From a candidate division WOR-3 bacterium (GTDB lineage Bacteria; Hydrothermota; Hydrothermia; LBFQ01; DSFT01): a stretch of 64,000 nt of DNA. The stretch covers positions 1,723 through 65,722 of the forward strand of contig JBDRXL010000001.1 in the NCBI GenBank assembly GCA_039802865.1, given 5' to 3'. The translations under genes were made by a program, and so were the position numbers. The notes under the pieces are model-generated. The model was not told where the DNA came from. It did not search any database and saw nothing but the letters and a program-made list of their open reading frames with translations. Numbering within the stretch: position 1 is the stretch's first letter; each line of letters opens with the position of its first letter. Shown here one piece after another: positions 4,276-60,451 of the stretch.

Positions 4276-4362
4276 TGCCCGGGGAGGGACTCGAACCCTC
4301 ACGCCCCTTTTGGGGGCCCAGGATTTTAAGTCCTGTGCGTCTTCCTATTCCGCCACCCGGGC
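4276..4362 (-). tRNA. tRNA-Leu (anticodon UAA), class II with a long variable arm
   Basis: The reverse complement reads GCCCGGGTGGCGGAATAGG...CAGGACTTAAAATCCTG...GGGTTCGAGTCCCTCCCCGGGCA. It has a 7-bp acceptor stem, anticodon loop CTTAAAA, a T-arm GGTTCGAGTCC, and no encoded CCA. Confidence 0.85.
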
Positions 4363-4387: not shown

Positions 4388-5227
4388 TTATTTATCCTTT
4401 TTTGTTGTAAAAATAAATCCTTCATACCATACATGAGAAGGACTTGATGCTCTATTATCAAACGACACATACACAATAAGTGGTCGAGAACCTTCTCCAT
4501 TTTCATCTCTTGAACCTTTAATCAACCAATATTGCCTACCACCACTTAACATGCCATCATAATAAACATATCCCTTTGAATCGTAAATTTTAGCTCTTGT
4601 ATTAACATCATTTAGTAAGTATATATAGAGAACTAAGATATCATTTTCATCAACTACATAAAAGGTTTCAATTGAACTTTTAGTGCCTATTTTTAGATTA
4701 TAATCTCCTTTATGAAACCTCGTTTCTAACTTCTTAAATTTAGAACCATCCCAGTATAAGAGAGAAGGAACAGGTCTAGAAGAGTGTGCTATAATATAAT
4801 TACTGACATACATATCAAAATCAGAATCATAGACTTCTTCATCTTTATAATAGAGATAACCAAGTCCCTGTATATAAATATCAGTTTTTTCACCGGGTTC
4901 TTCAATTTCTATCCATTTCCCATTTCTGTATAAAAACACATGAACTATCCTTCCAATTTTAGCAGAAACTGATTCCACAATTTTTATTCCAATTTTATCT
5001 CCAATAGGAATAGTAGTTACATCTCCTATTTGACTACCACCCTCCTCGCTTTGCACCTTAAATATCACTTCTCTCTTACCGGTTGCACCATCAACTACAA
5101 CAACACTGTTTTTCCCCCATATTATCTCATCATCAACCTTATCTCCCGTTACATCTTCTATAAGCTTTTGAGCATATAAGAAAGAAAAGCTATAAAGAAG
5201 AAGAAAATATGAACTTAACTTTTTCAT
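4388..5227 (-). CDS. Secreted protein of unknown function
   Basis: N-terminal signal peptide (LLLYSFSFLYAQ). SD sequence GGAGGGG upstream. No recognisable catalytic motif. Confidence 0.5.
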   Translation of the reverse strand: MKKLSSYFLLLYSFSFLYAQKLIEDVTGDKVDDEIIWGKNSVVVVDGATGKREVIFKVQSEEGGSQIGDVTTIPIGDKIGIKIVESVSAKIGRIVHVFLYRNGKWIEIEEPGEKTDIYIQGLGYLYYKDEEVYDSDFDMYVSNYIIAHSSRPVPSLLYWDGSKFKKLETRFHKGDYNLKIGTKSSIETFYVVDENDILVLYIYLLNDVNTRAKIYDSKGYVYYDGMLSGGRQYWLIKGSRDENGEGSRPLIVYVSFDNRASSPSHVWYEGFIFTTKKDK

Positions 5228-5287
5228 ATTTCCCCTCCTTTATTTTGAAAATTTTAAAGTCTTCACTATAAAATTTCAAATCCAACA

Positions 5288-6313
5288 TTGTTAAAACTTC
5301 TATTGTTATTTCATATTTTAATTTTTCTTATTGCTTTATATAAATTTGCTTCAATAAAAAAACTCAAAAGAAATTATAAAGAAAAACAACCTTTTGTTTC
5401 AATTTTAATTCCTGCAAGAAATGAAGAAAAAAATTTGCCTATCTTATTAAATTCCTTATTGAAAGTTAAGTATGAAAACGTAGAGATTCTAATTTATGAT
5501 GATTTATCGGAAGATAGAACTTATGAAATTGCTAAAAGCTTTGAAAATGAAAAAATTAAAGTAATAAAGGGGAAAGAAAAACCTTTTCACTGGATTGGAA
5601 AAAACTTTGCTTTATATAATTTAGTAAAATTTTCAAAGGGTGAAATTTTAATATTCTTAGATGCGGATGTTGAAATTATTGATGAGGAATTTATTCTTAA
5701 AGTTGTAGATAATATAAATGAAAATAATGTTATTACGGGTTTTGGGAAATTTGAAGGAGGTGGAAAAGCTATATTATCTATAATAACATTTCTGTTTTCA
5801 CAAATTCCTATAAATTTAGGATTGAATGGACAATTTTGGGCAATTAAAAGAGAAAACTATTTAAAATATGAGCCACACCTTAAATTTAAAAATGAAGTTC
5901 TTGAAGATGTAAAAATTGGTATTTATTTGTTATTTAAAGGGTTAAAAGTGGAATTTTTTGATCTTAAAGATGTATTTAAGGTAAAAATGTATGATAATTT
6001 TTATGAAATGATTGAAGGGCTTACAAAAAATGCATATAGTATGTTTGGTAAGAAATTTACACCAATAATGGTTATTTTATTTTACTTTGCTTTTCTAATT
6101 CCATTTATTTTATTTCCAATTTATCCATTTTACTTAATTTGCTTAATTATTCTATTAGATAAGCTTATTTGCGATATTAAATATGGCTTTTCAATAAAAT
6201 ATACTTTTTTAACACCAATTAGCTTTTTTATATTTGGATTAATAATGTTAAGGTCTTGGTATTTTTCTTTAAAGGGTAAGCTTTACTGGAAAGGAAGAAA
6301 TTTAAAGCTTTAA
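5288..6313 (+). CDS. Family 2 glycosyltransferase, membrane-anchored with multiple C-terminal TM helices
   Basis: Sequence SILIPARNEE...YDDLSEDRT followed by the D-x-D-like LDADVE motif. TTG start. Confidence 0.7.
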   Translation: MLKLLLLFHILIFLIALYKFASIKKLKRNYKEKQPFVSILIPARNEEKNLPILLNSLLKVKYENVEILIYDDLSEDRTYEIAKSFENEKIKVIKGKEKPFHWIGKNFALYNLVKFSKGEILIFLDADVEIIDEEFILKVVDNINENNVITGFGKFEGGGKAILSIITFLFSQIPINLGLNGQFWAIKRENYLKYEPHLKFKNEVLEDVKIGIYLLFKGLKVEFFDLKDVFKVKMYDNFYEMIEGLTKNAYSMFGKKFTPIMVILFYFAFLIPFILFPIYPFYLICLIILLDKLICDIKYGFSIKYTFLTPISFFIFGLIMLRSWYFSLKGKLYWKGRNLKL

Positions 6314-50958: not shown

Positions 50959-52148
50959 TTACCTCCTTATATACCAATCTATATAATTTTTTATCCCTTC
51001 TGCTATAGCCTTTGCTAACTTATTTTGATACTCTTCATCCATTAAAAGTTTTGCCTCCTCTGGATTTGAAATAAATCCAATTTCTATAAGTATAGAAGGG
51101 GCATAAACTTTCCTTAAAACATAAAATCCTGCTTGCTTTATTCCCCTATCATTTCTTCCATCTTTCAATTTTTCATGAACAAAGAATGCTAACTTTTGAG
51201 ATTCCTTTAAATAAGCATTTTGTAAAATATCTGAAACAATAAATTTCAGAATATCACTTTCCTCTACTTCATACTTAATAACTGAATTTTCAAGAGCTTC
51301 AACCGCTCTTTCTTCACTTGTTCTTGCAGTTGATAGAAAGTAAGTTTCTGGTCCAAATGCATTATCTACTTCTGAATAATTACAATGAATACTTACAAAC
51401 AATTTAGCATTATACCTTTTTGCTATTTCTGCTCTCTCGCTTAAAGATAAGAATATATCTTCTTCCCTTGTTAATATCACTTTAAACCCATACCCCATTT
51501 ACCAATTGCTCCTGGGTCCTTTCCACCATGTCCAGGATCAATAACAATATAACCAAAATTACCATATGAGTAAAGTATAAATTTTAAAACATAATTTTCT
51601 TTAATTTTTTTATAAGAGCCGTATTTAGTAGAAACGAAAATTTTAAAGAATGCCCCCTCTTTTGTATGGAAAATTGCGATAGAATCAATAATTCCACTAT
51701 CTCCTTTTATAAAATTAAATTTTGGATAAAAACCATCTGGAAGATGTATTAAGATAGCATTTTCTTCAAGCCATAATTGTTCTTTTGTATTTCTTGATAA
51801 TGTAAAAATTAAAACACAACTATCACTATTTTCAATAATTTGAAATTTCTTAATTGTTTCAATTGCCCTAAAAAGCTCATTTGATTTATAATCCCAAAAT
51901 ATCGGTATAGATGTTAGCCTATAAATTATTAAAGCGATATCTTTGCCATTTACATAGATTTTATTATCCCTAATCTCATATAAAAACTTAAAAGTTTTAT
52001 CCTTATGCCTAAATATTTTATTTTGAAAATCAAAATAAATTGTGTCATCTTTGTAGATTGCTAAATTATTCAAGAGCTTTATTGAATAAACGGATAATAT
52101 ACTATCTAATGGAAATAAGATGCCCATCATCTTTCGCTTATATACCAA
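50959..52148 (-). pseudogene. N-acetylmuramoyl-L-alanine amidase (Amidase_3) with an N-terminal domain. A 64-bp deletion relative to the neighbouring paralog frameshifts it into two ORFs (51477-52148 and 50959-51498).
   Basis: After ...GHGGKDPGAIGKWG the frame hits MGLK-stop. The catalytic part YGFKVILTREEDIFLSLSERAEIAKRYNAKLFVSIHCNY continues in another frame. Compare with the intact copy at 52127-52705. Confidence 0.5.
51375..51573. repeat. Tract of ~200 bp identical to 52423-52686 apart from a 64-bp indel (gene-conversion tract between amidase paralogs)
   Basis: Identity verified by eye (tacaatgaatacttacaaacaatttagcattatacctttttgctatttctgctctctcgcttaaagataagaatatatcttcttcccttgttaatatcactttaaaccca...ccatttaccaattgctcctgggtcctttccaccatgtccaggatcaataacaatataaccaaaattaccatatgagtaaa). 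Confidence 0.7.
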
Positions 52149-52705
52149 TTTACATATTCCCTTATCCCTTCCGCTATACCTCTTGCTAATAAGTATTGAT
52201 AATTTTTGTCTATAAGAAGATTTGCTTCTTCTGGGTTTGAAACATATCCTATCTCTATTATAACAGAAGGAATATAAATATTTCTTAAAAGGTAAAAATT
52301 CGCCTTTGTTATACCTCTACTTTTTGTAAATTCATTTATTCTTTGATTTATGAAAAATGCTAGTTTTCTTGATTCATTAGATAAGAAGAATACTTCAGGT
52401 CCTTTGATATTACTCATCTCAAAATAATTACAATGAATACTTACAAACAATTTAGCATTATACCTTTTTGCTATTTCTGCTCTCTCGCTTAAAGATAAGA
52501 ATATATCTTCTTCCCTTGTTAATATCACTTTAAACCCATACTCCTTTTTTAAAATATTTGCTATTTTTTTGCTTACTGATAATGTAATATCTTTCTCCTT
52601 TATACCCCATTTACCAATTGCTCCTGGGTCCTTTCCACCATGTCCAGGATCAATAACAATATAACCAAAATTACCATATGAGTAAAAGTTCAAAAAAAAC
52701 AACAT
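52127..52705 (-). CDS. N-acetylmuramoyl-L-alanine amidase, catalytic (Amidase_3) domain only (192 aa), no evident signal peptide
   Basis: Motif IVIDPGHGGKDPGAIG...KVILTREED...LFVSIHCNY...GYVSNPEEA. Confidence 0.55.
   Translation of the reverse strand: MLFFLNFYSYGNFGYIVIDPGHGGKDPGAIGKWGIKEKDITLSVSKKIANILKKEYGFKVILTREEDIFLSLSERAEIAKRYNAKLFVSIHCNYFEMSNIKGPEVFFLSNESRKLAFFINQRINEFTKSRGITKANFYLLRNIYIPSVIIEIGYVSNPEEANLLIDKNYQYLLARGIAEGIREYVNWYISER
52423..52686. repeat. Partner of the identical tract at 51375-51573, and contains the extra 64 bp (52541-52604)
   Basis: See the partner repeat. Confidence 0.7.
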
Positions 52706-54171
52706 AGTTTTCTTAGTAATCTACTTATTCCTTTTGGTATATCAGAGGGTTTAAATGTTAATTTATCAAAAAATTCACAACTTCTTGAATGTAAATATGC
52801 AGAAAGGACTGTTGAATTTATAGGACTTAAATGTTGTGCCAAAAATCCACCAATTAAACCACTTAACACATCCCCACTCCCCCCTCTTGCCAATTTTTCA
52901 TCCCCCCATATATTTAAAAATTTTAAATTATTTTGAACAATAACACTTGGATTGCCTTTTAACAAAAGAACACATTTATTTTTACTTGAAAAATCCAAAG
53001 AAATTTTAATTCTATTTCTATCTATTTCATATGGGTCCTTATTTATAATAAAACTCATTTCTCCAACATGGGGAGTAATAATTGTTTTTTCATTTAGTAA
53101 ATGAATTTTATCAGAAATTGCCCATATTCCATCCGCATCAATGATTTTTGGAACATCTAATTTTATTATTTCATTCATAAACTCTTTTACACTTTCATTT
53201 CTTGAAATACCACTTCCTACTACAATACTATTAAAATTCAAATTTTTTGAAATTAAATCAATAAAGCTTTCCTTTGAAAAATAACCATCCTTATCCTCAA
53301 CAGGAATTACAATACTTTCTGGAATTCTTCCAACAACATATGGATATATCTTTTTAGGAACAACTACATAAATTAATCCTACTCCACTACTCAAAGCACC
53401 TATTACATTTAAAATTACCGCACCTACAAAATCCTTACTTCCCCCAATTATTAAAACTTTCCCTTTCTCTCTTTTACTCTCATAACCCTTATATTTTGGC
53501 AATAAATTTAATACATCCTCTTCTTCAAGATATAAAAATCCTTTATTTTCAGCAAGTTCCTCTTCAATTCCAATATCTATTACTTCTAAATTCCCTCTAT
53601 GAATTTTCCCTTCAAATAAATAATGTCCAAGCTTTTCATAAGCAAATGTATAAGTATAATTGCTTAAAAAAGCTATATTTTCAATAAAACCTGTTTCACC
53701 ATCCACTCCACTTGGAATATCAACACTAACTTTAATAGTTTTTGAATTATTAGCAATTTCAACAGCTTTATAAAAATCATCTTTTAAAGAACCTTTAAAT
53801 CCTGTTCCAAATATCGCATCAACAATAACATCAAAATTCTTTACATCCTCAATAAATTCCTTTTCATCAAACTTTTTATATTCCACATTAAAAACTTTTA
53901 ATAACTCAAAATTTATTTTTGTTTCATTTGTTTTAAAATTTTCATCAAAAATTATTACTTTTACATATTTTTTAAATTTTTTTAACCATCTTGCTATTAC
54001 AAATCCATCTCCTCCATTATTCCCACTTCCACACATAATTAAAAAACTTTTTCCAAAATTTTTAATTCTTTCTGCTACTGATTTTCCTGCATTTTCCATC
54101 AATACAATTTGTGGAATTTTTGAACTATTATCAATTTCCTTCATTTCAGATGGTGATACAATCCTTCTCAT
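52690..54171 (-). CDS. nnr: Bifunctional NAD(P)H-hydrate repair enzyme Nnr (epimerase + ADP-dependent dehydratase; YjeF-N/YjeF-C)
   Basis: YjeF-N motif MCGSGNNGGDG and C-terminal carbohydrate-kinase-like GDVLSGLIGGFLAQ. Confidence 0.8.
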   Translation of the reverse strand: MRRIVSPSEMKEIDNSSKIPQIVLMENAGKSVAERIKNFGKSFLIMCGSGNNGGDGFVIARWLKKFKKYVKVIIFDENFKTNETKINFELLKVFNVEYKKFDEKEFIEDVKNFDVIVDAIFGTGFKGSLKDDFYKAVEIANNSKTIKVSVDIPSGVDGETGFIENIAFLSNYTYTFAYEKLGHYLFEGKIHRGNLEVIDIGIEEELAENKGFLYLEEEDVLNLLPKYKGYESKREKGKVLIIGGSKDFVGAVILNVIGALSSGVGLIYVVVPKKIYPYVVGRIPESIVIPVEDKDGYFSKESFIDLISKNLNFNSIVVGSGISRNESVKEFMNEIIKLDVPKIIDADGIWAISDKIHLLNEKTIITPHVGEMSFIINKDPYEIDRNRIKISLDFSSKNKCVLLLKGNPSVIVQNNLKFLNIWGDEKLARGGSGDVLSGLIGGFLAQHLSPINSTVLSAYLHSRSCEFFDKLTFKPSDIPKGISRLLRKLCCFF

Positions 54172-54557
54172 ACTAAGAATTTTAGTTTTAATAATAACTT
54201 TCCTTGACCTACCACTTCCCCCTCCTTACAATGAACTTTCTCAACCATTGCATTTTGGGGGCTTGTAATAATCATTTCCATCTTCATTGATTCAATTGTA
54301 AGTAAAACATCATCTTTATTCACAAAATCCCCCTCTTTTACATTCAACTTATTTATCTTCCCTGTAATAGGTGATATTATTTCCTCTTTACTATGCTCTT
54401 CAAAAGCAGTTGTTTCTAAAACTTTTTCAATAACATATATCCTTGAATTGTAAAATAATATAATCTTTTCTCCTTCTTTTTTAAGCAAAAGCTCTAACTT
54501 TAAATTATGGTCTATACTAACATCATAAACATTTCCGTAATTATCTTTTAACTTCAT
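54168..54557 (-). CDS. Biotinyl/lipoyl-domain protein (second biotin carrier-like protein in the window)
   Basis: Motif TIESMKMEMIITSP (E-x-MKM biotinylation motif). Start chosen at MKLKDNYG to avoid overlapping lspA. Confidence 0.55.
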   Translation of the reverse strand: MKLKDNYGNVYDVSIDHNLKLELLLKKEGEKIILFYNSRIYVIEKVLETTAFEEHSKEEIISPITGKINKLNVKEGDFVNKDDVLLTIESMKMEMIITSPQNAMVEKVHCKEGEVVGQGKLLLKLKFLV

Positions 54558-55035
54558 GTTTAGACCTCTTAAAAACACTATCAAAAATAAGTAAAAATAT
54601 AGCAATTGTAATAACACTATCTGCCAAGTTAAACACAAACCATCTTAAATGCTCATTTATTCCAATATCCAAAAAATCTACTACCATTCCCCTAAATATC
54701 CTATCAATGATATTTCCTAGGGCTCCCCCAATAATTAAACAATAAGCAAAAAAACTTAAAAAACTCTTTTCTTTAATTGCAAGATATAACACAAACAATG
54801 TAATTGCAATAGCAATAGGAGTATAAGGAAATTTTTCTCCAAAATTTAAACCAAATGCAACACCTGGATTATAAACAAATGTTAATCTAAAAAATTCCCC
54901 AAATACACTTATAGGTTGATGATAGGGTAGATTTTTTTCAACCAAAAATTTTGTTAATTGGTCTAAAAATACAATAATAGAAGGTATAACCAATAGGAAA
55001 GATATTTTATTTTTCATTTTATGAGATTTAGCCAA
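54541..55035 (-). CDS. lspA: Lipoprotein signal peptidase (signal peptidase II)
   Basis: Conserved LspA motifs FRLTFVYNPGVAFG and NIIDRI...VVDFLD. Four TM segments. Confidence 0.8.
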   Translation of the reverse strand: MAKSHKMKNKISFLLVIPSIIVFLDQLTKFLVEKNLPYHQPISVFGEFFRLTFVYNPGVAFGLNFGEKFPYTPIAIAITLFVLYLAIKEKSFLSFFAYCLIIGGALGNIIDRIFRGMVVDFLDIGINEHLRWFVFNLADSVITIAIFLLIFDSVFKRSKHEVKR

Positions 55036-55706
55036 TCACTTAAAAGGAAGTAAAATCTACTAATTAAAAGTGAAAATCTTGCCATAATTGTATAACCAAA
55101 ACTTGCTCCAAATGTAATCATTATTATAATAATTCCAAGCTTTGCTATTCCAAGTAAAATTCCTCTTTGTTCCGCAGAGAAATAGAAATAAACAAGACCT
55201 GTAATAACTCCAAGTAAAATTACAATTGGACCAATTATTGTAAGAGCACTAATTAAGAAATTAAGGGGAGATGATAAATCTAAGCTAAAACTTGGAGAAA
55301 GAAGGGGTAAGAATGTTGCAGAAACCTGGGGAAATATAAATCCTTGTATAGTAGCTACAATTCCAATACCAGAGCCCACTCCTACTACAAAAGCAATAGG
55401 TAATCTTGAAAGCCATACTAAGGAAGGAATTATATATGAAAAAATTTCAAGCCTTGTAAGAGTTAAAATACCAAGGAAAATAGCAATAGCAGTCATAGTT
55501 CTTACAAATATATGCTGTTGTGGATCAAGACCCATTTGAATAGATGGAACAATAGCTTGATTTAAAGTTAAAATTACACCATATCCAGCAGATACCCCTA
55601 CAAAGATATGCTCTGCAAGTTTATATATTGGATTATCACCAAATACAAATGACAATACCGCAAGGGTTAAAAATGCAGCTATCCAAATACCAATAATTTC
55701 TATCAT
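55014..55706 (-). CDS. Polytopic membrane protein of unknown function (operon member 4 of 4)
   Basis: About six hydrophobic segments. 4-nt overlap with the upstream gene. Confidence 0.4.
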   Translation of the reverse strand: MIEIIGIWIAAFLTLAVLSFVFGDNPIYKLAEHIFVGVSAGYGVILTLNQAIVPSIQMGLDPQQHIFVRTMTAIAIFLGILTLTRLEIFSYIIPSLVWLSRLPIAFVVGVGSGIGIVATIQGFIFPQVSATFLPLLSPSFSLDLSSPLNFLISALTIIGPIVILLGVITGLVYFYFSAEQRGILLGIAKLGIIIIMITFGASFGYTIMARFSLLISRFYFLLSDWLNLIK

Positions 55707-56545
55707 GTTAAAAACCTCCTAAGTATAAAGCCAACATTCCCAAAAAGTATAAATAATAAAATTATGCTATGAACAGAAACTTGCGAAACCATAATCAAAG
55801 ATGCAAGACCTTTTTTATTTGCTAAACTTTCATAATCATAAGCTCCTTTAAGTCCCCCTACAATTCCAACAATTTGTTTTGCTTGATAATATGGAAAGTA
55901 TTGAGGAGCCATAACCGCAGTAACTGCAAAAGCCATCTTTACACCGTATCTTGCTTGAACAATTTGAATCCAGAAATCTCCCGTTGCTCCCGCTTCAAAT
56001 CCAAATAATAAGTCTATATCCTTATAATTTAAAATCCCATCTTCCCCAACAATTTCTTTATATATTGGATAACTATCAAGTGGCTTATTGTAATAATCAA
56101 CTTGAAAAACATTCCTAAAATCCTCACTTAAACCTATCATAACCCCAACAACACCAGGTCTAAAACCAAGTATTAAATAATCTTCTCCATATTTTTTATT
56201 ATATTTCTTTGCAATTTTTTCTATTGCACTTATACCAACTATTAAACCTTGAAATTGCCAATGCGTCATCAATAGAACTTTTACATTCTTTTTGAAAGCT
56301 TGTTCTAAAACTACTTCTAAAACTGGTTGAAGTTCTGGATAAGCAGAAGGTCCATAGTCCGTGGAAAGTAATAATACATCTCCTTCTTTTAAGGATTCTA
56401 CCGCATTATAGGCTTCTTTAACTTCTTGCGTTGGTCTTGTAGGAAGAGAAGGTTTTAGAAATAGGGGAATAACTATGGAAAATATCAAAATTGTATAAAT
56501 TATTCTTCTATCTATAAGGGATAAAAAATCTAAAACTGCTCTCAT
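55703..56545 (-). CDS. Membrane-anchored protein of unknown function (operon member 3 of 4)
   Basis: N-terminal TM helix, a soluble domain and a C-terminal TM helix. 4-nt overlaps on both sides. Confidence 0.4.
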   Translation of the reverse strand: MRAVLDFLSLIDRRIIYTILIFSIVIPLFLKPSLPTRPTQEVKEAYNAVESLKEGDVLLLSTDYGPSAYPELQPVLEVVLEQAFKKNVKVLLMTHWQFQGLIVGISAIEKIAKKYNKKYGEDYLILGFRPGVVGVMIGLSEDFRNVFQVDYYNKPLDSYPIYKEIVGEDGILNYKDIDLLFGFEAGATGDFWIQIVQARYGVKMAFAVTAVMAPQYFPYYQAKQIVGIVGGLKGAYDYESLANKKGLASLIMVSQVSVHSIILLFILFGNVGFILRRFLT

Positions 56546-57336
56546 CTTATATAACCCCTTTCTATTCCAAATATAATTCTAAGAGAAAATGCAATAGAAC
56601 CAAGAGATAAACCAAGTCCTATTGCTCTTTGACCTGCACTATTTGGATAATTCATAATCCAATCGGAAAGTGCTGGAATAAAGTCAGAAAGAAGCATAGA
56701 AAATTGTGGTATGAATATAGATAATCCTAAGGTTAAGAAGAAAATACCAATAATATATCTTATTATAGAGCGAAATCCTGTATATTTTGTTCCCATATAA
56801 ATTAAATAGCTACCAGTTAATATCATAAAAGCAAAGAAAAATGGAATAAATATATAACCTCCAAATGGAACTCTCCCCATCATAACGATTGCTGCTGATA
56901 ATAAAAGTAATGTGGATTCTAAATTCCTAGCCCTAAATGCTCTATATGCTGCTGATGCAATAAAGAAAGCAAGTAATGAAAACATAGTAGCATCAAGTGG
57001 AAGGAAAACATTTTTAAATAACCATAAATAACTTGAATTTGGAACAAATGGACCCCCATATTTATACCATGCCCAAGCCCCCCAAAAAAGCGCTATAAAA
57101 AATGAAATTAAAAGAATAACACTATATACTGCATCTTTACTTTTTCTTCTAATTTTTCTGAAATGATAAAGAACAAGACTATCTATACCAAGCAAAAGTG
57201 CAAATCCAGAAACAATTACATACCACCTACTTGTAAGTTGTTCAATTTGCGTAAAAGGTTCTCTTGGTATAAAAAATAGAGCCATTATCAAAATTCCACT
57301 TATAAACGTAATGAATACTGGAAGTTGAACTTGCAT
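56542..57336 (-). CDS. Polytopic membrane protein of unknown function (operon member 2 of 4)
   Basis: Seven to eight hydrophobic segments. Confidence 0.4.
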   Translation of the reverse strand: MQVQLPVFITFISGILIMALFFIPREPFTQIEQLTSRWYVIVSGFALLLGIDSLVLYHFRKIRRKSKDAVYSVILLISFFIALFWGAWAWYKYGGPFVPNSSYLWLFKNVFLPLDATMFSLLAFFIASAAYRAFRARNLESTLLLLSAAIVMMGRVPFGGYIFIPFFFAFMILTGSYLIYMGTKYTGFRSIIRYIIGIFFLTLGLSIFIPQFSMLLSDFIPALSDWIMNYPNSAGQRAIGLGLSLGSIAFSLRIIFGIERGYIR

Positions 57337-57337
57337 T

Positions 57338-58459
57338 TTACCCCCCTACTTTAAAAATACTTGTATATGCTTCACTTAAACCTTTTAATATGTTATATTC
57401 AGAAAAGGTTGATAAAACAGCTCCAACAATAATAATTATAATAATTAACAATTTTGCAATATCTTCTGATTTAATTGTTCCAATTTCGGAAGGATTTTTG
57501 CTTAAATAAGCAGATGCAGCATAAAGCTCTTCACCAATAAGAGTATAATCACAAGATACTATAAAGAATGGTAATTGTGTAATTGCAGTAGTTCCAGCGA
57601 TATTTATAGCTCCTACATTATAAGAAGTCTCCGCCATTAACAAACTTTCTGCATAAAAGTAACCTTGATAAAAAGCTGCTCCTGGTCTTTCTCTAATTAC
57701 AATACCATTAAATCCAGCAGCAAATCCAAATTGTTCCGTTGTTAAAAACATTATATTATCTTCTTTATACAAATCTGGTCTTCCTGCTTCTGTAAAACCC
57801 TCTTTAACTGCTTCTCTTGAAGCAATCATTATAAGAGGGTCATTATTTGGAACAATTAAATCCATACCATAATTTGCAACTTTCCTAGCAACATATTTTA
57901 ATATTGCAATACCTGCTATAATGGAAGGATCACTTAAAGTTCCTATGCCTGTTGTATAAATTATTGGTCTTCCCATTTCTGTTGCCCTACCAACTGCATC
58001 ATCTATTGCTTCAAGCCCCGCAATTTTCCTAATATAAGGCACTTTACCCAACCTAGCAGAATAATAATAATAAAAGAAAAGAAGACCAAATACTAAAAGG
58101 AATACAAGCACAGGAAGCTTTTTAAAGTCAAAGTAAGGTTTATTTTCATTTTTATTTTTAATTAATAAAACAACAGGTTCAGACCACTTCGTATCCGCAT
58201 AAGTTGTATCATCAGAATAAGTTCTAATAAGATAGCTATATTTGACATTTGGTTTTACTGTTGTATCTATGAATTCCGTTTTATCCGTTTGTCCTAAAAG
58301 AAGTGGATGTTCCTTAGAGTTTTCTTCATCCGCTCTATAAACTTCATATTTTTTAATTTCCACAGGTGGAGCTTTCCACTTTAATATAACTTTATTTTCC
58401 TCCACCTTTATATTCAAGCTTTCTGCTTGAAAAGCGATATTAAATATAATGAAAAACAT
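57338..58459 (-). CDS. Membrane protein with an N-terminal FN3-like extracytoplasmic domain and a large second domain (operon member 1 of 4)
   Basis: FN3-like KVILKWKAPPVEIKKYEVYRAD...YSYLIRTY, a TM helix with poly-Tyr (FFYYYYS), a Gly-rich domain and a C-terminal TM helix. Confidence 0.4.
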   Translation of the reverse strand: MFFIIFNIAFQAESLNIKVEENKVILKWKAPPVEIKKYEVYRADEENSKEHPLLLGQTDKTEFIDTTVKPNVKYSYLIRTYSDDTTYADTKWSEPVVLLIKNKNENKPYFDFKKLPVLVFLLVFGLLFFYYYYSARLGKVPYIRKIAGLEAIDDAVGRATEMGRPIIYTTGIGTLSDPSIIAGIAILKYVARKVANYGMDLIVPNNDPLIMIASREAVKEGFTEAGRPDLYKEDNIMFLTTEQFGFAAGFNGIVIRERPGAAFYQGYFYAESLLMAETSYNVGAINIAGTTAITQLPFFIVSCDYTLIGEELYAASAYLSKNPSEIGTIKSEDIAKLLIIIIIIVGAVLSTFSEYNILKGLSEAYTSIFKVGG

Positions 58460-58465
58460 AAGTTC

Positions 58466-59176
58466 CTACAATTTTAAAGTATATAGCACTTGCTCATTTA
58501 TATTTAAAATTTTTATTTCATTTTCATTTATTACACCATATGTAAAGTGATTTATCCAATCACCAATGCATATAATTTTTTTATTTCCTTTTATCTCGCA
58601 CATTGGGCTGTGCAAGTGTCCAACTACTAATATATCTCCTTCAATTTTTTGAAAGTAATTCCATAACCAAGCAGGAACTTTATCAACATCATTATGAGCT
58701 TTCCTACTTGTTTTAGAAACAAATTTAGCAATTTTAATACCAAAATCTGGATGTATCATCTTAAATAACCAAACTAAAATAGGATTTTTTAAAATATCTC
58801 TTGTTTTAACTCTAAATTTTAAATCATCACCATGAGCAAAAACTAATTTCTTACCATCTATAATTAACTCATATTTTCCAATAATTGGCTTTATATTTAA
58901 TTTTTCAAAAAATTTTCCAATCCACAAATCATGATTTCCAGCTATATAAATAGTTTCAACATCTTTTGAAACCAAATATAATTCATTTAAAACCTTAAAG
59001 TAATGCGAAAATATCACACTATCATACTCAAACCAAAAATCAAATAAATCTCCAATTATTATAAATTTTTTTGCATTTTTTCTAACTCTATCCATTAAAA
59101 TTTTAAATTTTCTAAACTTTTCTTCCTCACTTTCAGAAAAGCCAAAATGAGCATCTGAAAATAGGTAAATTTCCAA
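58466..59176 (-). CDS. Calcineurin-like metallophosphoesterase (LpxH/YaeI-like fold)
   Basis: Motifs LFSDAHFG, GDLFDFW and GNHD. TTG start at 59174-59176. Confidence 0.6.
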   Translation of the reverse strand: MEIYLFSDAHFGFSESEEEKFRKFKILMDRVRKNAKKFIIIGDLFDFWFEYDSVIFSHYFKVLNELYLVSKDVETIYIAGNHDLWIGKFFEKLNIKPIIGKYELIIDGKKLVFAHGDDLKFRVKTRDILKNPILVWLFKMIHPDFGIKIAKFVSKTSRKAHNDVDKVPAWLWNYFQKIEGDILVVGHLHSPMCEIKGNKKIICIGDWINHFTYGVINENEIKILNINEQVLYTLKL

Positions 59177-59778: not shown

Positions 59779-60451
59779 ATAAATAAACAAGATATTAGAA
59801 AAATTTCCAGAAGGGAAATTGTAGAAATTATAATAAAGGAGGAGATTGAGCAAAATAGGAAGATGATACAAGAGCTATGGGATATAATTAGGGAAGGGAA
59901 TAAAGTAAATGAAAGGTTATGGAAAACTGTTGAAGTTCTTGGTAAAAGGATAGATAAATTAACAAAAGTAAGTAAGGAGCAAGGTAAAAGAATAAATAGA
60001 TTAGAAAAAGCTTTGATTGAATTAACTGAAAGAGTAAATAATTTGACACAGGCAATTGAAGAAATGAGAAAAGCTAATCAAGAACAATTTGAAAGAATAA
60101 ATAAAAAATTTGATGAAATGAAAAAATACATAGACAATAAAATAAGTTCTCTTGGAGCACGATGGGGAATTGAATCAGAAAATACTTTCAGAAATTCAAT
60201 AGCTTATTTATTAAAAGACATAGGATTTAAGGTAGAAAAACTAATTTTCTTTGATGATGAAGGTTATGTATTCTCAAAACCTTCAACTATTGAAATAGAC
60301 CTTATTATAACAAATGGTAAAACAATAGCAATAGAAATAAAATCTAAGGAAAATTGATGATAAAATTTTTATAAGTCCATTTGTTTGTCCAGGTGGAGTT
60401 ATCAAGCTTGCACAAGAATTTAATATAAAAATTGAAAATGTAGAGCTTTAA
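59779..60451 (+). pseudogene. Decayed paralog of the 16019-17119 coiled-coil/PD-(D/E)XK gene. It lacks a start (homology begins right after the upstream stop), has a short coiled coil, and its C-terminal tail lies in a second frame.
   Basis: [30 protein letters not shown] matches the N-terminus of the full-length paralog. ...IAIEIKSKEN ends at a stop, then KIFISPFVCPGGVIKLAQEFNIKIENVEL continues in another frame and matches the paralog C-terminus. Confidence 0.45.

Follow-up and report, generated by a model that had tools for sequence, protein, structure and literature searches.

The window analysed here, a stretch of 64,000 nucleotides from a candidate division WOR-3 bacterium, contains four consecutive genes on the minus strand, which we refer to as P1 (57338-58459), P2 (56542-57336), P3 (55703-56545) and P4 (55014-55706); all features described below lie on this strand as well. 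According to the open reading frame list the genes encode proteins of 373, 264, 280 and 230 aa, and their positions and sizes agreed with those of the original prediction, which had been made from the sequence alone. Between the TAA stop codon of P1 and the ATG of P2 there is a gap of 1 nt, while the end of P2 and the start of P3, and likewise P3 and P4, have an ATGA in common (4-nt overlap each, read from the sequence). The adjoining lspA gene (54541-55017; signal peptidase II, TIGR00077, 1.7e-33) probably starts at ATG 55017, giving 158 aa as in related MAGs, and not at the mechanically listed TTG 55035; with this start it overlaps the stop codon of P4 by 4 nt, again as ATGA. Short gaps and overlaps extend beyond P1-P4, from an LpxH-like metallophosphoesterase gene (58466-59176; NF003743, 2e-21, below the curated cut-off), the first of the co-directional array and 6 nt upstream of P1, to lspA, the gene of a small biotin-carboxyl-carrier-like (BCCP-like) protein (54168-54557; Biotin_lipoyl, 8.4e-17, and NCBIfam BCCP models), nnr, amidase genes, and the genes of a DHH protein, a kinase and tgt. 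The LpxH-like, lspA and BCCP-like genes are described as context only. Tight coupling in the window is thus not peculiar to P1-P4, as the whole array shows it. Promoter-like sites in the window were not in excess over the shuffled expectation and one terminator-like site was found, within lspA, in a scan that is uninformative at 26-30% GC.

P1 is predicted to consist of a signal peptide, an FN3 ectodomain, a TM helix, a cytoplasmic alpha/beta domain and a second TM helix, and this FN3-TM-domain-TM layout was also seen in homologs, of which there are at least 7,973 at 90% clustering. The signal peptide is of the ordinary type I, is also present on P1 orthologs and has no lipobox. The FN3-like ectodomain (residues 13-89; 58193-58423) that had been noticed in the first protein proved to be a true FN3 domain with the corresponding beta-sandwich fold, its score against PF00041 being 22.5 bits (E 1.3e-4), under the gathering threshold of 25; it is predicted to be periplasmic. 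TM helix 1 (residues 112-136; 58052-58126), which has a poly-Tyr end, was located from the AF2 helix and hydropathy, and the K/R-rich loop that follows suggests that the cytoplasmic side lies there. In the AF2 model of P1 (pLDDT 88.8) a Rossmann-like alpha/beta domain of six beta-alpha units (residues 147-320; 57500-58021) sits between this helix and TM helix 2 (residues 323-353; 57401-57493), at the start of which D333 and K336 are invariant. The alpha/beta domain is the most conserved part of the whole module, and the 44 invariant columns of the P1 family alignment are concentrated in it and in the segment just before TM helix 2. Some P1 proteins carry long FN3/coiled-coil stalks that would span the periplasm.

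Residues 107-355 of P1 belong to the Pfam family DUF6754 (PF20539), which they matched with an E-value of 1e-104 and 349.7 bits (cut-off 27) over profile positions 3-251 of 257. The original statement that none of the four proteins can be placed in a family therefore stands for P2, P3 and P4 but not for P1. Members of PF20539 are often annotated as 'fibronectin type III domain-containing protein', and the Pfam entry, which gives no function, is silent on the three partner genes, the Rossmann-like fold between TM helices and the tandem arrays described below. A literature search on DUF6754/PF20539 found no relevant paper.

The AF2 model of P3 (pLDDT 94.9) also consists of an alpha/beta domain (residues 40-241; 55823-56428) between two TM helices, as had been expected for the third protein. 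The domain is Rossmann-like, and structure comparison gave generic Rossmann matches only. RCK/KTN (TrkA-N) domains were 5-11% identical to P3, and SDRs, sugar-binding proteins and GT-B enzymes scored equally. P3 lacks the GxGxxG motif and its domain is predicted to be periplasmic, whereas the RCK domains of K+ transporters and channels are cytoplasmic; P2 and P4 showed no match to a K+ channel or transporter family. Profile-profile comparison revealed no relation between P1 and P3 despite their common architecture. The termini of P3 (DRR...RR) are predicted to be cytoplasmic and its domain therefore periplasmic, and the Rossmann-like domains of P1 and P3 probably face opposite sides of the membrane. 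This topology is based on the positive-inside rule applied to family alignments, the signal peptides of P1 orthologs and a CARDB insertion in the P3 domain, the part that concerns P3 being drawn from short charged tails and this one insertion. Conserved Q255, H259 and N270 sit in the last TM helix. Clustered at 50% identity, the P3 family alone comprises 5,318 representatives (at least 5,000 clusters), and P3 had no Pfam, NCBIfam, PADLOC or PDB sequence match. P1 and P3, in which TM helices flank an alpha/beta domain on both sides, are alike in layout to GldG/BatA-type proteins, an architectural analogue from multi-gene membrane systems of the FCB group.

P2 and P4 are the two polytopic proteins that had been recognised in the set. 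P2 has a core of 6 TM helices, predicted N-in and C-in, to which an insertion of about 50 aa adds 2 TM helices in WOR-3, and its conserved motifs are PLDATMFSLLAFFIASAAYRAFRAR and WIMN.PN.AGQRGI...SLRII.GIERGY. P4, with about 6 TM helices and 2,357 homologs, has the conserved motif KDNP.YKFAEH after TM1 and FGASFGYTVMARISLLIGR near the C-terminus. Searches of Pfam, NCBIfam, PADLOC and PDB sequences gave no match for either protein, and no relation between them was found by profile-profile comparison. Voting on weak matches over the P2 family against Pfam gave nothing. For P4, DUF3704 came up when weak Pfam matches were pooled across family members, as one short, meaningless match, and was rejected.

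The gene order was compared in 94 non-redundant loci. P2, P3 and P4 came after P1 in this order for 73 of the 79 P1 genes with enough downstream DNA, a count that is inflated by shared ancestry as the loci were gathered via P1 similarity; the median intergenic distances for P1/P2, P2/P3 and P3/P4 were 9, -1 and -1 nt. Module loci were found in WOR-3/Hydrothermia, Zixibacteria, Stahlbacteria, Latescibacteria(-like) bacteria, Armatimonadota and unclassified metagenome contigs, and further P3 homologs come from MAG records labelled Coatesbacteria and Myxococcota. At least 15 loci contain two to three tandem, anciently diverged copies of the module, with a coordinated divergence of the four subunits to 40-55% identity. 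Identity between the paralogs was lowest in the parts predicted to face the periplasm (40% in P3, 41% in the P1 ectodomain) and highest in the P1 cytoplasmic domain (54%). Such tandem arrays of paralogs are a common feature of transporter families and would be unusual in a single-copy housekeeping machine. A few lineages have a split module, with only P1-P2, only P4 or only P1, and the genes thus need not be strictly co-translated. The cluster is thus conserved, and the original view of the four genes as one unit was strengthened by their constant order across several phyla and by the tandem duplication of whole modules. The inference that P1-P4 form one membrane complex is well supported by these data.

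Judged by its sequences, the module matches no studied system. Profiles of P1-P4 gave nothing significant against the PDB beyond FN3. The original prediction had named ABC-2 permeases and Rnf-like complexes as known families that the proteins might turn out to match; such matches were looked for and not found. In P2 and P4 there was no Pfam or NCBIfam match to an ABC-2/ABC permease signature, even at E<=10 across family members, and no ATPase gene is recurrent beside the module. Homologs of RnfD/NqrB, RnfA/E (NqrD/E) and RnfG/NqrC were not found among P1-P4, nor was an OAD_beta match of the kind expected for Na+-translocating decarboxylases (OadB/GcdB/MmdB). Literature on the module families, on PF13941 and on membrane complexes of the host phyla yielded nothing relevant.

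We favour, with somewhat less than even confidence, the reading that P1-P4 constitute one heteromeric inner-membrane complex of an uncharacterised kind, whose most probable activity would be the transport or translocation of a small molecule or an envelope precursor across the inner membrane; a transporter or translocase of a new kind is our best guess. P2 and P4, with 6-8 and about 6 TM helices, would form the membrane core. P1, exported by its type-I signal peptide, would put the FN3 stalk into the periplasm and hold its Rossmann-like domain at the cytoplasmic face between the two TM helices, the C-terminal edge of its sheet probably forming a pocket for a ligand or nucleotide, and P3 would present the second, unrelated Rossmann-like domain between its TM helices at the periplasmic face. 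The periplasmic side, with P3 and the ectodomain of P1, may determine specificity. The cytoplasmic P1 domain may dock on cytoplasmic motifs that are conserved in P2, P3 and P4, and in this way provide gating or coupling. Encoded upstream in some phyla are a GlmL-type ASKHA ATPase and a barrel-sandwich protein of 374 aa (BSH-374), which could be soluble energising or regulatory partners. More tentatively still, we consider it possible that the module represents an unrecognised class of machine, in which two unrelated Rossmann-like domains on opposite faces relay binding or energy across the polytopic core, driven or regulated in some lineages by the ASKHA ATPase and the barrel-sandwich protein. 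Against transport speak the lack of a recognisable permease fold and of an ATPase or substrate-binding protein in the module core. That the cytoplasmic domain of P1 is so extremely conserved would be in keeping with an enzyme no less than with a gating function.

Other readings were weighed against the same data. In the compact genome of the window unrelated genes are packed with the same overlaps, and a few lineages split the module, as would be expected if four unrelated membrane-protein genes merely lay side by side; this reading is effectively refuted by the order kept in 73 of 79 cases across phyla and by whole-module tandem duplications with paralog divergence coordinated over all four genes. 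The functional link to lspA that had been suggested, with the module as an accessory of lipoprotein processing or export acting with LspA, was not borne out and is very improbable. Besides the overlap in the window, lspA comes after P4 in 7 non-redundant loci of the WOR-3 type, with P1 identity as low as about 49%. However, among approximately 60 loci with downstream sequence it adjoins P4 only in this clade, and not in Zixibacteria, Stahlbacteria, Armatimonadota, Latescibacteria-like or most other metagenome loci, and the same overlaps in the window couple the unrelated nnr, amidases and tgt. The type-I signal peptide of P1 without lipobox and the absence of similarity of P1-P4 to Lgt, LspA, Lnt and Lol pathway families in Pfam and NCBIfam also argue against it, and two to three module copies would be ill-suited to a partner of a normally single-copy peptidase. 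The lspA adjacency is local synteny in a compact genome and is outside the proposed mechanism. The BSH-374 protein invites a comparison with Rnf and Na+-NQR, as it has an RnfC_N/NqrA_N-type domain and is encoded on the same strand directly upstream (-1) of P1 in 7 clustered loci and in L014, hence in at least eight loci from at least two phyla (Armatimonadota, Latescibacteria-like and others); a GlmL-like protein is encoded, also on the same strand, at -2 in five loci and L014. The module could accordingly be the membrane sector of an ion-translocating energy-converting complex, on which this RnfC/NqrA-like protein or a biotinyl carrier docks, and the BCCP-like gene two genes downstream in the window, which carries an ESMKME biotinylation motif, the polar residues in the P3 TM helix and D333 and K336 of P1 would be in line with this. 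We consider it decidedly unlikely, as the families named above and cofactor-binding families were not detected in P1-P4, which have no Fe-S or flavin motifs. BSH-374 resembles RnfC/NqrA in its N-domain alone (RnfC_N, 3.2e-6); it lacks the modifiable lysine, and neither SLBB nor 51K or Fe-S parts were detected in it. The protein is missing from the window and from the WOR-3 loci examined; its profile gave nothing significant against the PDB. The BCCP-like gene is conserved only among the closest relatives, and no carboxyltransferase gene accompanies it within the 21-kb neighbourhood.

An enzyme complex of cell-envelope biogenesis, for instance one in which the P1 cytoplasmic domain is the catalytic part and a lipid-linked precursor of LPS or peptidoglycan is modified or flipped, is also unlikely, although the enzyme-like conservation of this domain and the long stalks of some P1 proteins would suit it. 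Envelope genes do occur near the module: the LpxH-like gene, lspA and two amidases in the window, LpxB/LpxI in L016, Wzi in L011, and amidase, M23, S11 and S66 peptidases in Zixibacteria. However, these neighbours vary by locus and none is recurrent beyond close relatives, the LpxH-like gene being at its position only in the closest ones; two to three tandem paralogous modules would be unusual for a core biosynthetic step, and none of the known families of glycosyltransferases, flippases or polymerases showed similarity. Domains on both membrane faces, variable ectodomains and paralogous arrays could likewise belong to a transmembrane sensor, in which FN3 and P3 detect a cue that the P1 cytoplasmic domain relays. 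Yet no kinase, cyclase, HAMP, PAS, receiver or DNA-binding domain was present in the module or its recurrent neighbours, and two polytopic subunits of about 6 TM helices exceed what a sensor normally needs, which makes this reading very improbable.

If the module is one machine, as in the transporter or translocase reading that we prefer, it is a large protein system of many environmentally abundant, mostly uncultured phyla without a studied relative, with three of its four subunits (P2, P3 and P4) lacking a family name, and possibly a new architecture among membrane transport and coupling systems. Should the relay across two faces be true, it would be a transporter or energy-coupling architecture with no homolog in studied systems. 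Identifying the substrate or cue of the module would close a gap in the metabolic reconstructions of WOR-3, Zixibacteria, Latescibacteria and relatives. Family models are warranted for P2, P3 and P4, and annotation should treat the four genes as one unit, not as an 'FN3 domain protein' and three hypothetical proteins.

One SIR2-like neighbour was seen among the loci. Together with the tandem arrays it prompted us to consider a defence-system or phage origin, which was rejected as there was no PADLOC match and no relative on IMG/VR contigs. We also rejected the idea that a link to biotin or lipoate is central to the module, given the restricted occurrence of the BCCP-like gene and the lack of a modifiable lysine in BSH-374. 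The ligase encoded at +1 in four loci is LplA-like and not BirA, and at L036 its occurrence together with an upstream gcvPB gene indicates a glycine-cleavage context.

The four adjoining membrane-protein genes P1 (57338-58459, 373 aa), P2 (56542-57336, 264 aa), P3 (55703-56545, 280 aa) and P4 (55014-55706, 230 aa) are encoded on the minus strand of this candidate division WOR-3 bacterium (Ca. Hydrothermia, approximately 26-30% GC), and their ORF coordinates agreed exactly with the original prediction. Reading the junctions directly in the sequence, we found that a single base separates the stop codon of P1 from the start codon of P2, and that ATGA is common to both genes at the P2/P3 and the P3/P4 junction. 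P4 and lspA are also joined by an ATGA overlap, provided that lspA starts at the ATG at 55017. The listed lspA ORF (54541-55035, minus strand, 164 aa) has a TTG start, but the ATG is more likely, as it overlaps the P4 stop and yields the 158-aa protein found in the annotation of four MAGs with identical P1. The genes lie within a longer array of overlapping genes in one direction. Its first gene encodes an LpxH-like phosphoesterase; P1-P4 and lspA come next, then a gene for a small biotinyl carrier protein, nnr (YjeF), a pair of Amidase_3 genes, genes for a DHH protein and an amino-acid kinase, and tgt. The tight coupling is therefore a trait of the compact genome and not specific to P1-P4. 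Promoter-like sites were no commoner than in shuffled sequence, and the single terminator-like site detected lies within lspA; neither scan was informative at this GC content. The biotin-carboxyl-carrier-like protein (54168-54557, minus strand, about 129 aa), located between lspA and nnr, has an ESMKME biotinylation motif, and no carboxylase or decarboxylase partner for it was found within about 10 kb on either side.

Residues 107-355 of P1 matched Pfam DUF6754 (E 1e-104), an entry that is a catalogue name without function or literature, and the fn3 match fell just under the threshold. P2, P3 and P4 gave zero sequence matches in Pfam, NCBIfam, PADLOC and PDB, in searches that included scanning every family member at E<=10, or family profiles. 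Thus, the earlier statement that none of the proteins could be placed in a known family holds for P2, P3 and P4, but not for P1. No relation was detectable between P1 and P3 or between P2 and P4. The latter two are both polytopic, as had been proposed; the P2 core has 6 TM helices, and the WOR-3 versions gain two helices from an insertion of about 50 residues.

In the AlphaFold2 model of P1 (pLDDT 88.8) a short signal sequence is followed by an FN3 sandwich (13-89), a TM helix (112-136) whose end carries the poly-Tyr run, a beta/alpha domain of six units (147-320) and finally a long second TM helix (323-353). What had been taken for a Gly-rich domain is the beta1-loop-alpha1 segment of the soluble beta/alpha domain. 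Among 64 homologs (44-78% identity) the P1 domain has 44 invariant columns, many of them charged or polar (R144, R158, E161, E216, E224, R227, D229, Q243, R256, E271, E277, T290, Q295, D304, T306, E311, D333 and K336). These residues map at or just past the C-terminal ends of strands, a placement in the model that suggests a ligand-binding or catalytic pocket. Some long P1 proteins (934-1,009 aa) owe their extra length to FN3-like repeats and a coiled coil, and no enzymatic domain was found in these extra regions.

Since P1 orthologs carry clear type-I signal peptides and a K/R-rich loop follows the first TM helix, the FN3 domain should be on the periplasmic side and the DUF6754 domain on the cytoplasmic side. 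Similarly, the soluble domain of P3 is probably periplasmic, judging from a near-invariant D-R-R ahead of TM1, an R/K-rich C-terminal tail and a CARDB cell-adhesion domain inserted within the soluble domain of one long homolog. This domain is Rossmann-like and resembled RCK domains at 5-11% identity, with SDRs, sugar-binding proteins and GT-B enzymes scoring equally well and no GxGxxG motif present. The last TM helix of P3 has conserved Q255, H259 and N270. Candidate sites at which the P1 domain could dock are offered by motifs of P2 (YRAFRAR and GIERGY), P3 (DRRII) and P4 (KDNP.YKFAEH), all strongly conserved and predicted to be cytoplasmic.

The families are large: P1 has at least 7,973 clusters of homologs at 90% identity, from a search limited to 8,000 candidates, P3 has 5,318 representatives at 50% clustering (4,077 at E<=1e-10) by exhaustive profile searching with HMMER, and P4 has 2,357 homologs in a word-limited search. 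By source names, the homologs derive from WOR-3, Hydrothermia, Stahlbacteria, Zixibacteria, Latescibacteria, Armatimonadota, Coatesbacteria and one Myxococcota MAG. We fetched 100 loci, 80 of them by scanning metagenomes with the P1 alignment, and determined gene order in 98 (94 non-redundant) using HMMs of the four families; as loci were gathered via P1, modules without P1 would escape this survey. P2-P3-P4 followed in order and on the same strand after 73 of 110 P1 genes, another 31 were cut by a contig end, and only six had an incomplete module despite ample DNA, two of these being a second P1 copy immediately upstream of a complete module. Shared ancestry contributes to this count. The median gaps were 9, -1 and -1 nt for P1/P2, P2/P3 and P3/P4, respectively. 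Unrelated genes (DNA methyltransferase, sulfatase) were occasionally inserted between P3 and P4, a hot-spring lineage had P1-P2 together and P4 alone elsewhere, and one locus (L069) had P1 alone. The module was not found on viral contigs.

In at least 15 loci the complete module was present two or three times in tandem, with three copies in L017 (1-9511; P1 of the first copy almost wholly upstream of the fetched stretch), L054 (1223-12185) and L087 (9626-19830). The copies separated long ago, with joint divergence of the four genes: median identity between tandem copies was 54% for the TM and DUF6754 part of P1 and 41% for its ectodomain, 50% for P4, 44% for P2 and 40% for P3. The middle copy of L017 looks degraded, with P2 split (169 and 61 aa) and a garbled C-terminal part of P3 that appears as a separate overlapping ORF.

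The preserved order and the joint divergence support the proposal of one membrane complex: there is strong support for P1-P4 as one functional unit, and they very probably form one complex. For its activity, transport or translocation is the most economical reading, which we put forward tentatively, at somewhat under an even chance. It accounts for two polytopic and two bitopic subunits with domains on opposite faces, for repeated tandem duplication of the whole module with divergence fastest in periplasm-facing parts, and for the absence of signalling, redox or known catalytic domains, none of which was found in the module. An enzyme complex for envelope biogenesis is unlikely. The suggested functional link to lspA was not supported. 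Clustering the genes that flank the modules (six per side), we found few recurrent neighbours; lspA was at +1 in 7 loci, all WOR-3-type, and nothing beyond this WOR-3 synteny favours an lspA accessory, which is highly improbable. Likewise, the LpxH-like gene (-1, 5 loci) and the biotinyl carrier protein (+2 after lspA, 4 loci) were confined to the closest relatives.

In non-WOR-3 phyla, a conserved set of soluble proteins is encoded upstream (L014 423-3736, L015 4055-5176, L036 2881-6136, L059 4597-9708, L074 1-2149, L076 3-2649). It consists of a protein of about 110-130 aa, often preceding a GlmL/MutL-type ASKHA ATPase (about 600 aa; mostly -2, in 5 loci and L014), and the 374-aa protein BSH-374 (-1, or -2 in one locus; 7 clustered loci and L014). 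BSH-374 is highly conserved (52-60% identity between lineages; motifs YTPGL, QGIFG.GGE, TEGFG and TQIRAGV.RPE), with an RnfC_N/NqrA_N-type barrel-sandwich N-domain and a KOW-like C-terminus. For the protein as such, neither a dedicated family nor a relative of solved structure was found. Its N-domain raises the idea that the module is the membrane part of an ion-translocating complex to which BSH-374 would add a soluble barrel-sandwich subunit. We regard this as improbable, somewhat more so than the envelope enzyme: homologs of Rnf/Nqr membrane subunits were not found among P1-P4, and the barrel-sandwich partner is absent from the window and the WOR-3 loci. These also lack the GlmL-like partner. 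Nor could P1-P4 be assigned to ABC-2, decarboxylase sodium pumps, the lipoprotein pathway or defence systems. With no such membership and no family beyond DUF6754, the module appears to fall outside every characterised kind of system, new in the sense of having no detectable relative and not of a demonstrated new mechanism.

An LplA-like ligase gene was found at +1 (+3 in one locus) in 4 loci. In L036 the entire array is bracketed by gcvPB and the ligase gene, which may thus belong to a glycine-cleavage context there. In L059 a SIR2_2-domain gene (4986-6119) separates the GlmL-like gene from that of the small protein.

Downstream of the module, the Amidase_3 genes are partly duplicated (50959-52705, minus strand), with an 85-nt perfect direct repeat (51490-51574 and 52602-52686) and a 183-nt repeat of 85% identity (51318-51500 and 52366-52548), the copies being about 1.05-1.1 kb apart. 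In the window the second amidase reads as two ORFs (223 and 179 aa), where the MAGs with identical P1 have either a single gene of 407-411 aa or another arrangement; structural variation between strains or an artefact of assembly may explain this. The DUF3782 gene beside the array (59863-60357, plus strand, 164 aa) is variable or decaying, with lengths of 88, 164, 201 or 221 aa across these four MAGs and a PDDEXK_10 match in some. One of them (L003, 3464-6589) has a gyrA-like gene with an intein (Intein_splicing and LAGLIDADG) upstream of the counterpart to about 60.4 kb of the window; beyond the flavin-reductase gene, on its upstream side, the gene order departs from that of the other three, indicating a strain-level rearrangement breakpoint near 60 kb. 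In L001 (819-5670), the counterpart of the window from about 62.8 kb onward and past its end, a gene for a 547-aa TPR-repeat protein lies between the V-type ATPase A- and B-subunit genes, an unusual insertion in this operon. Rfam gave a single match across the 64 kb of the window, a tRNA gene (4276-4362, minus strand), which at 87 nt would be long enough for class II (Leu, Ser or Tyr).
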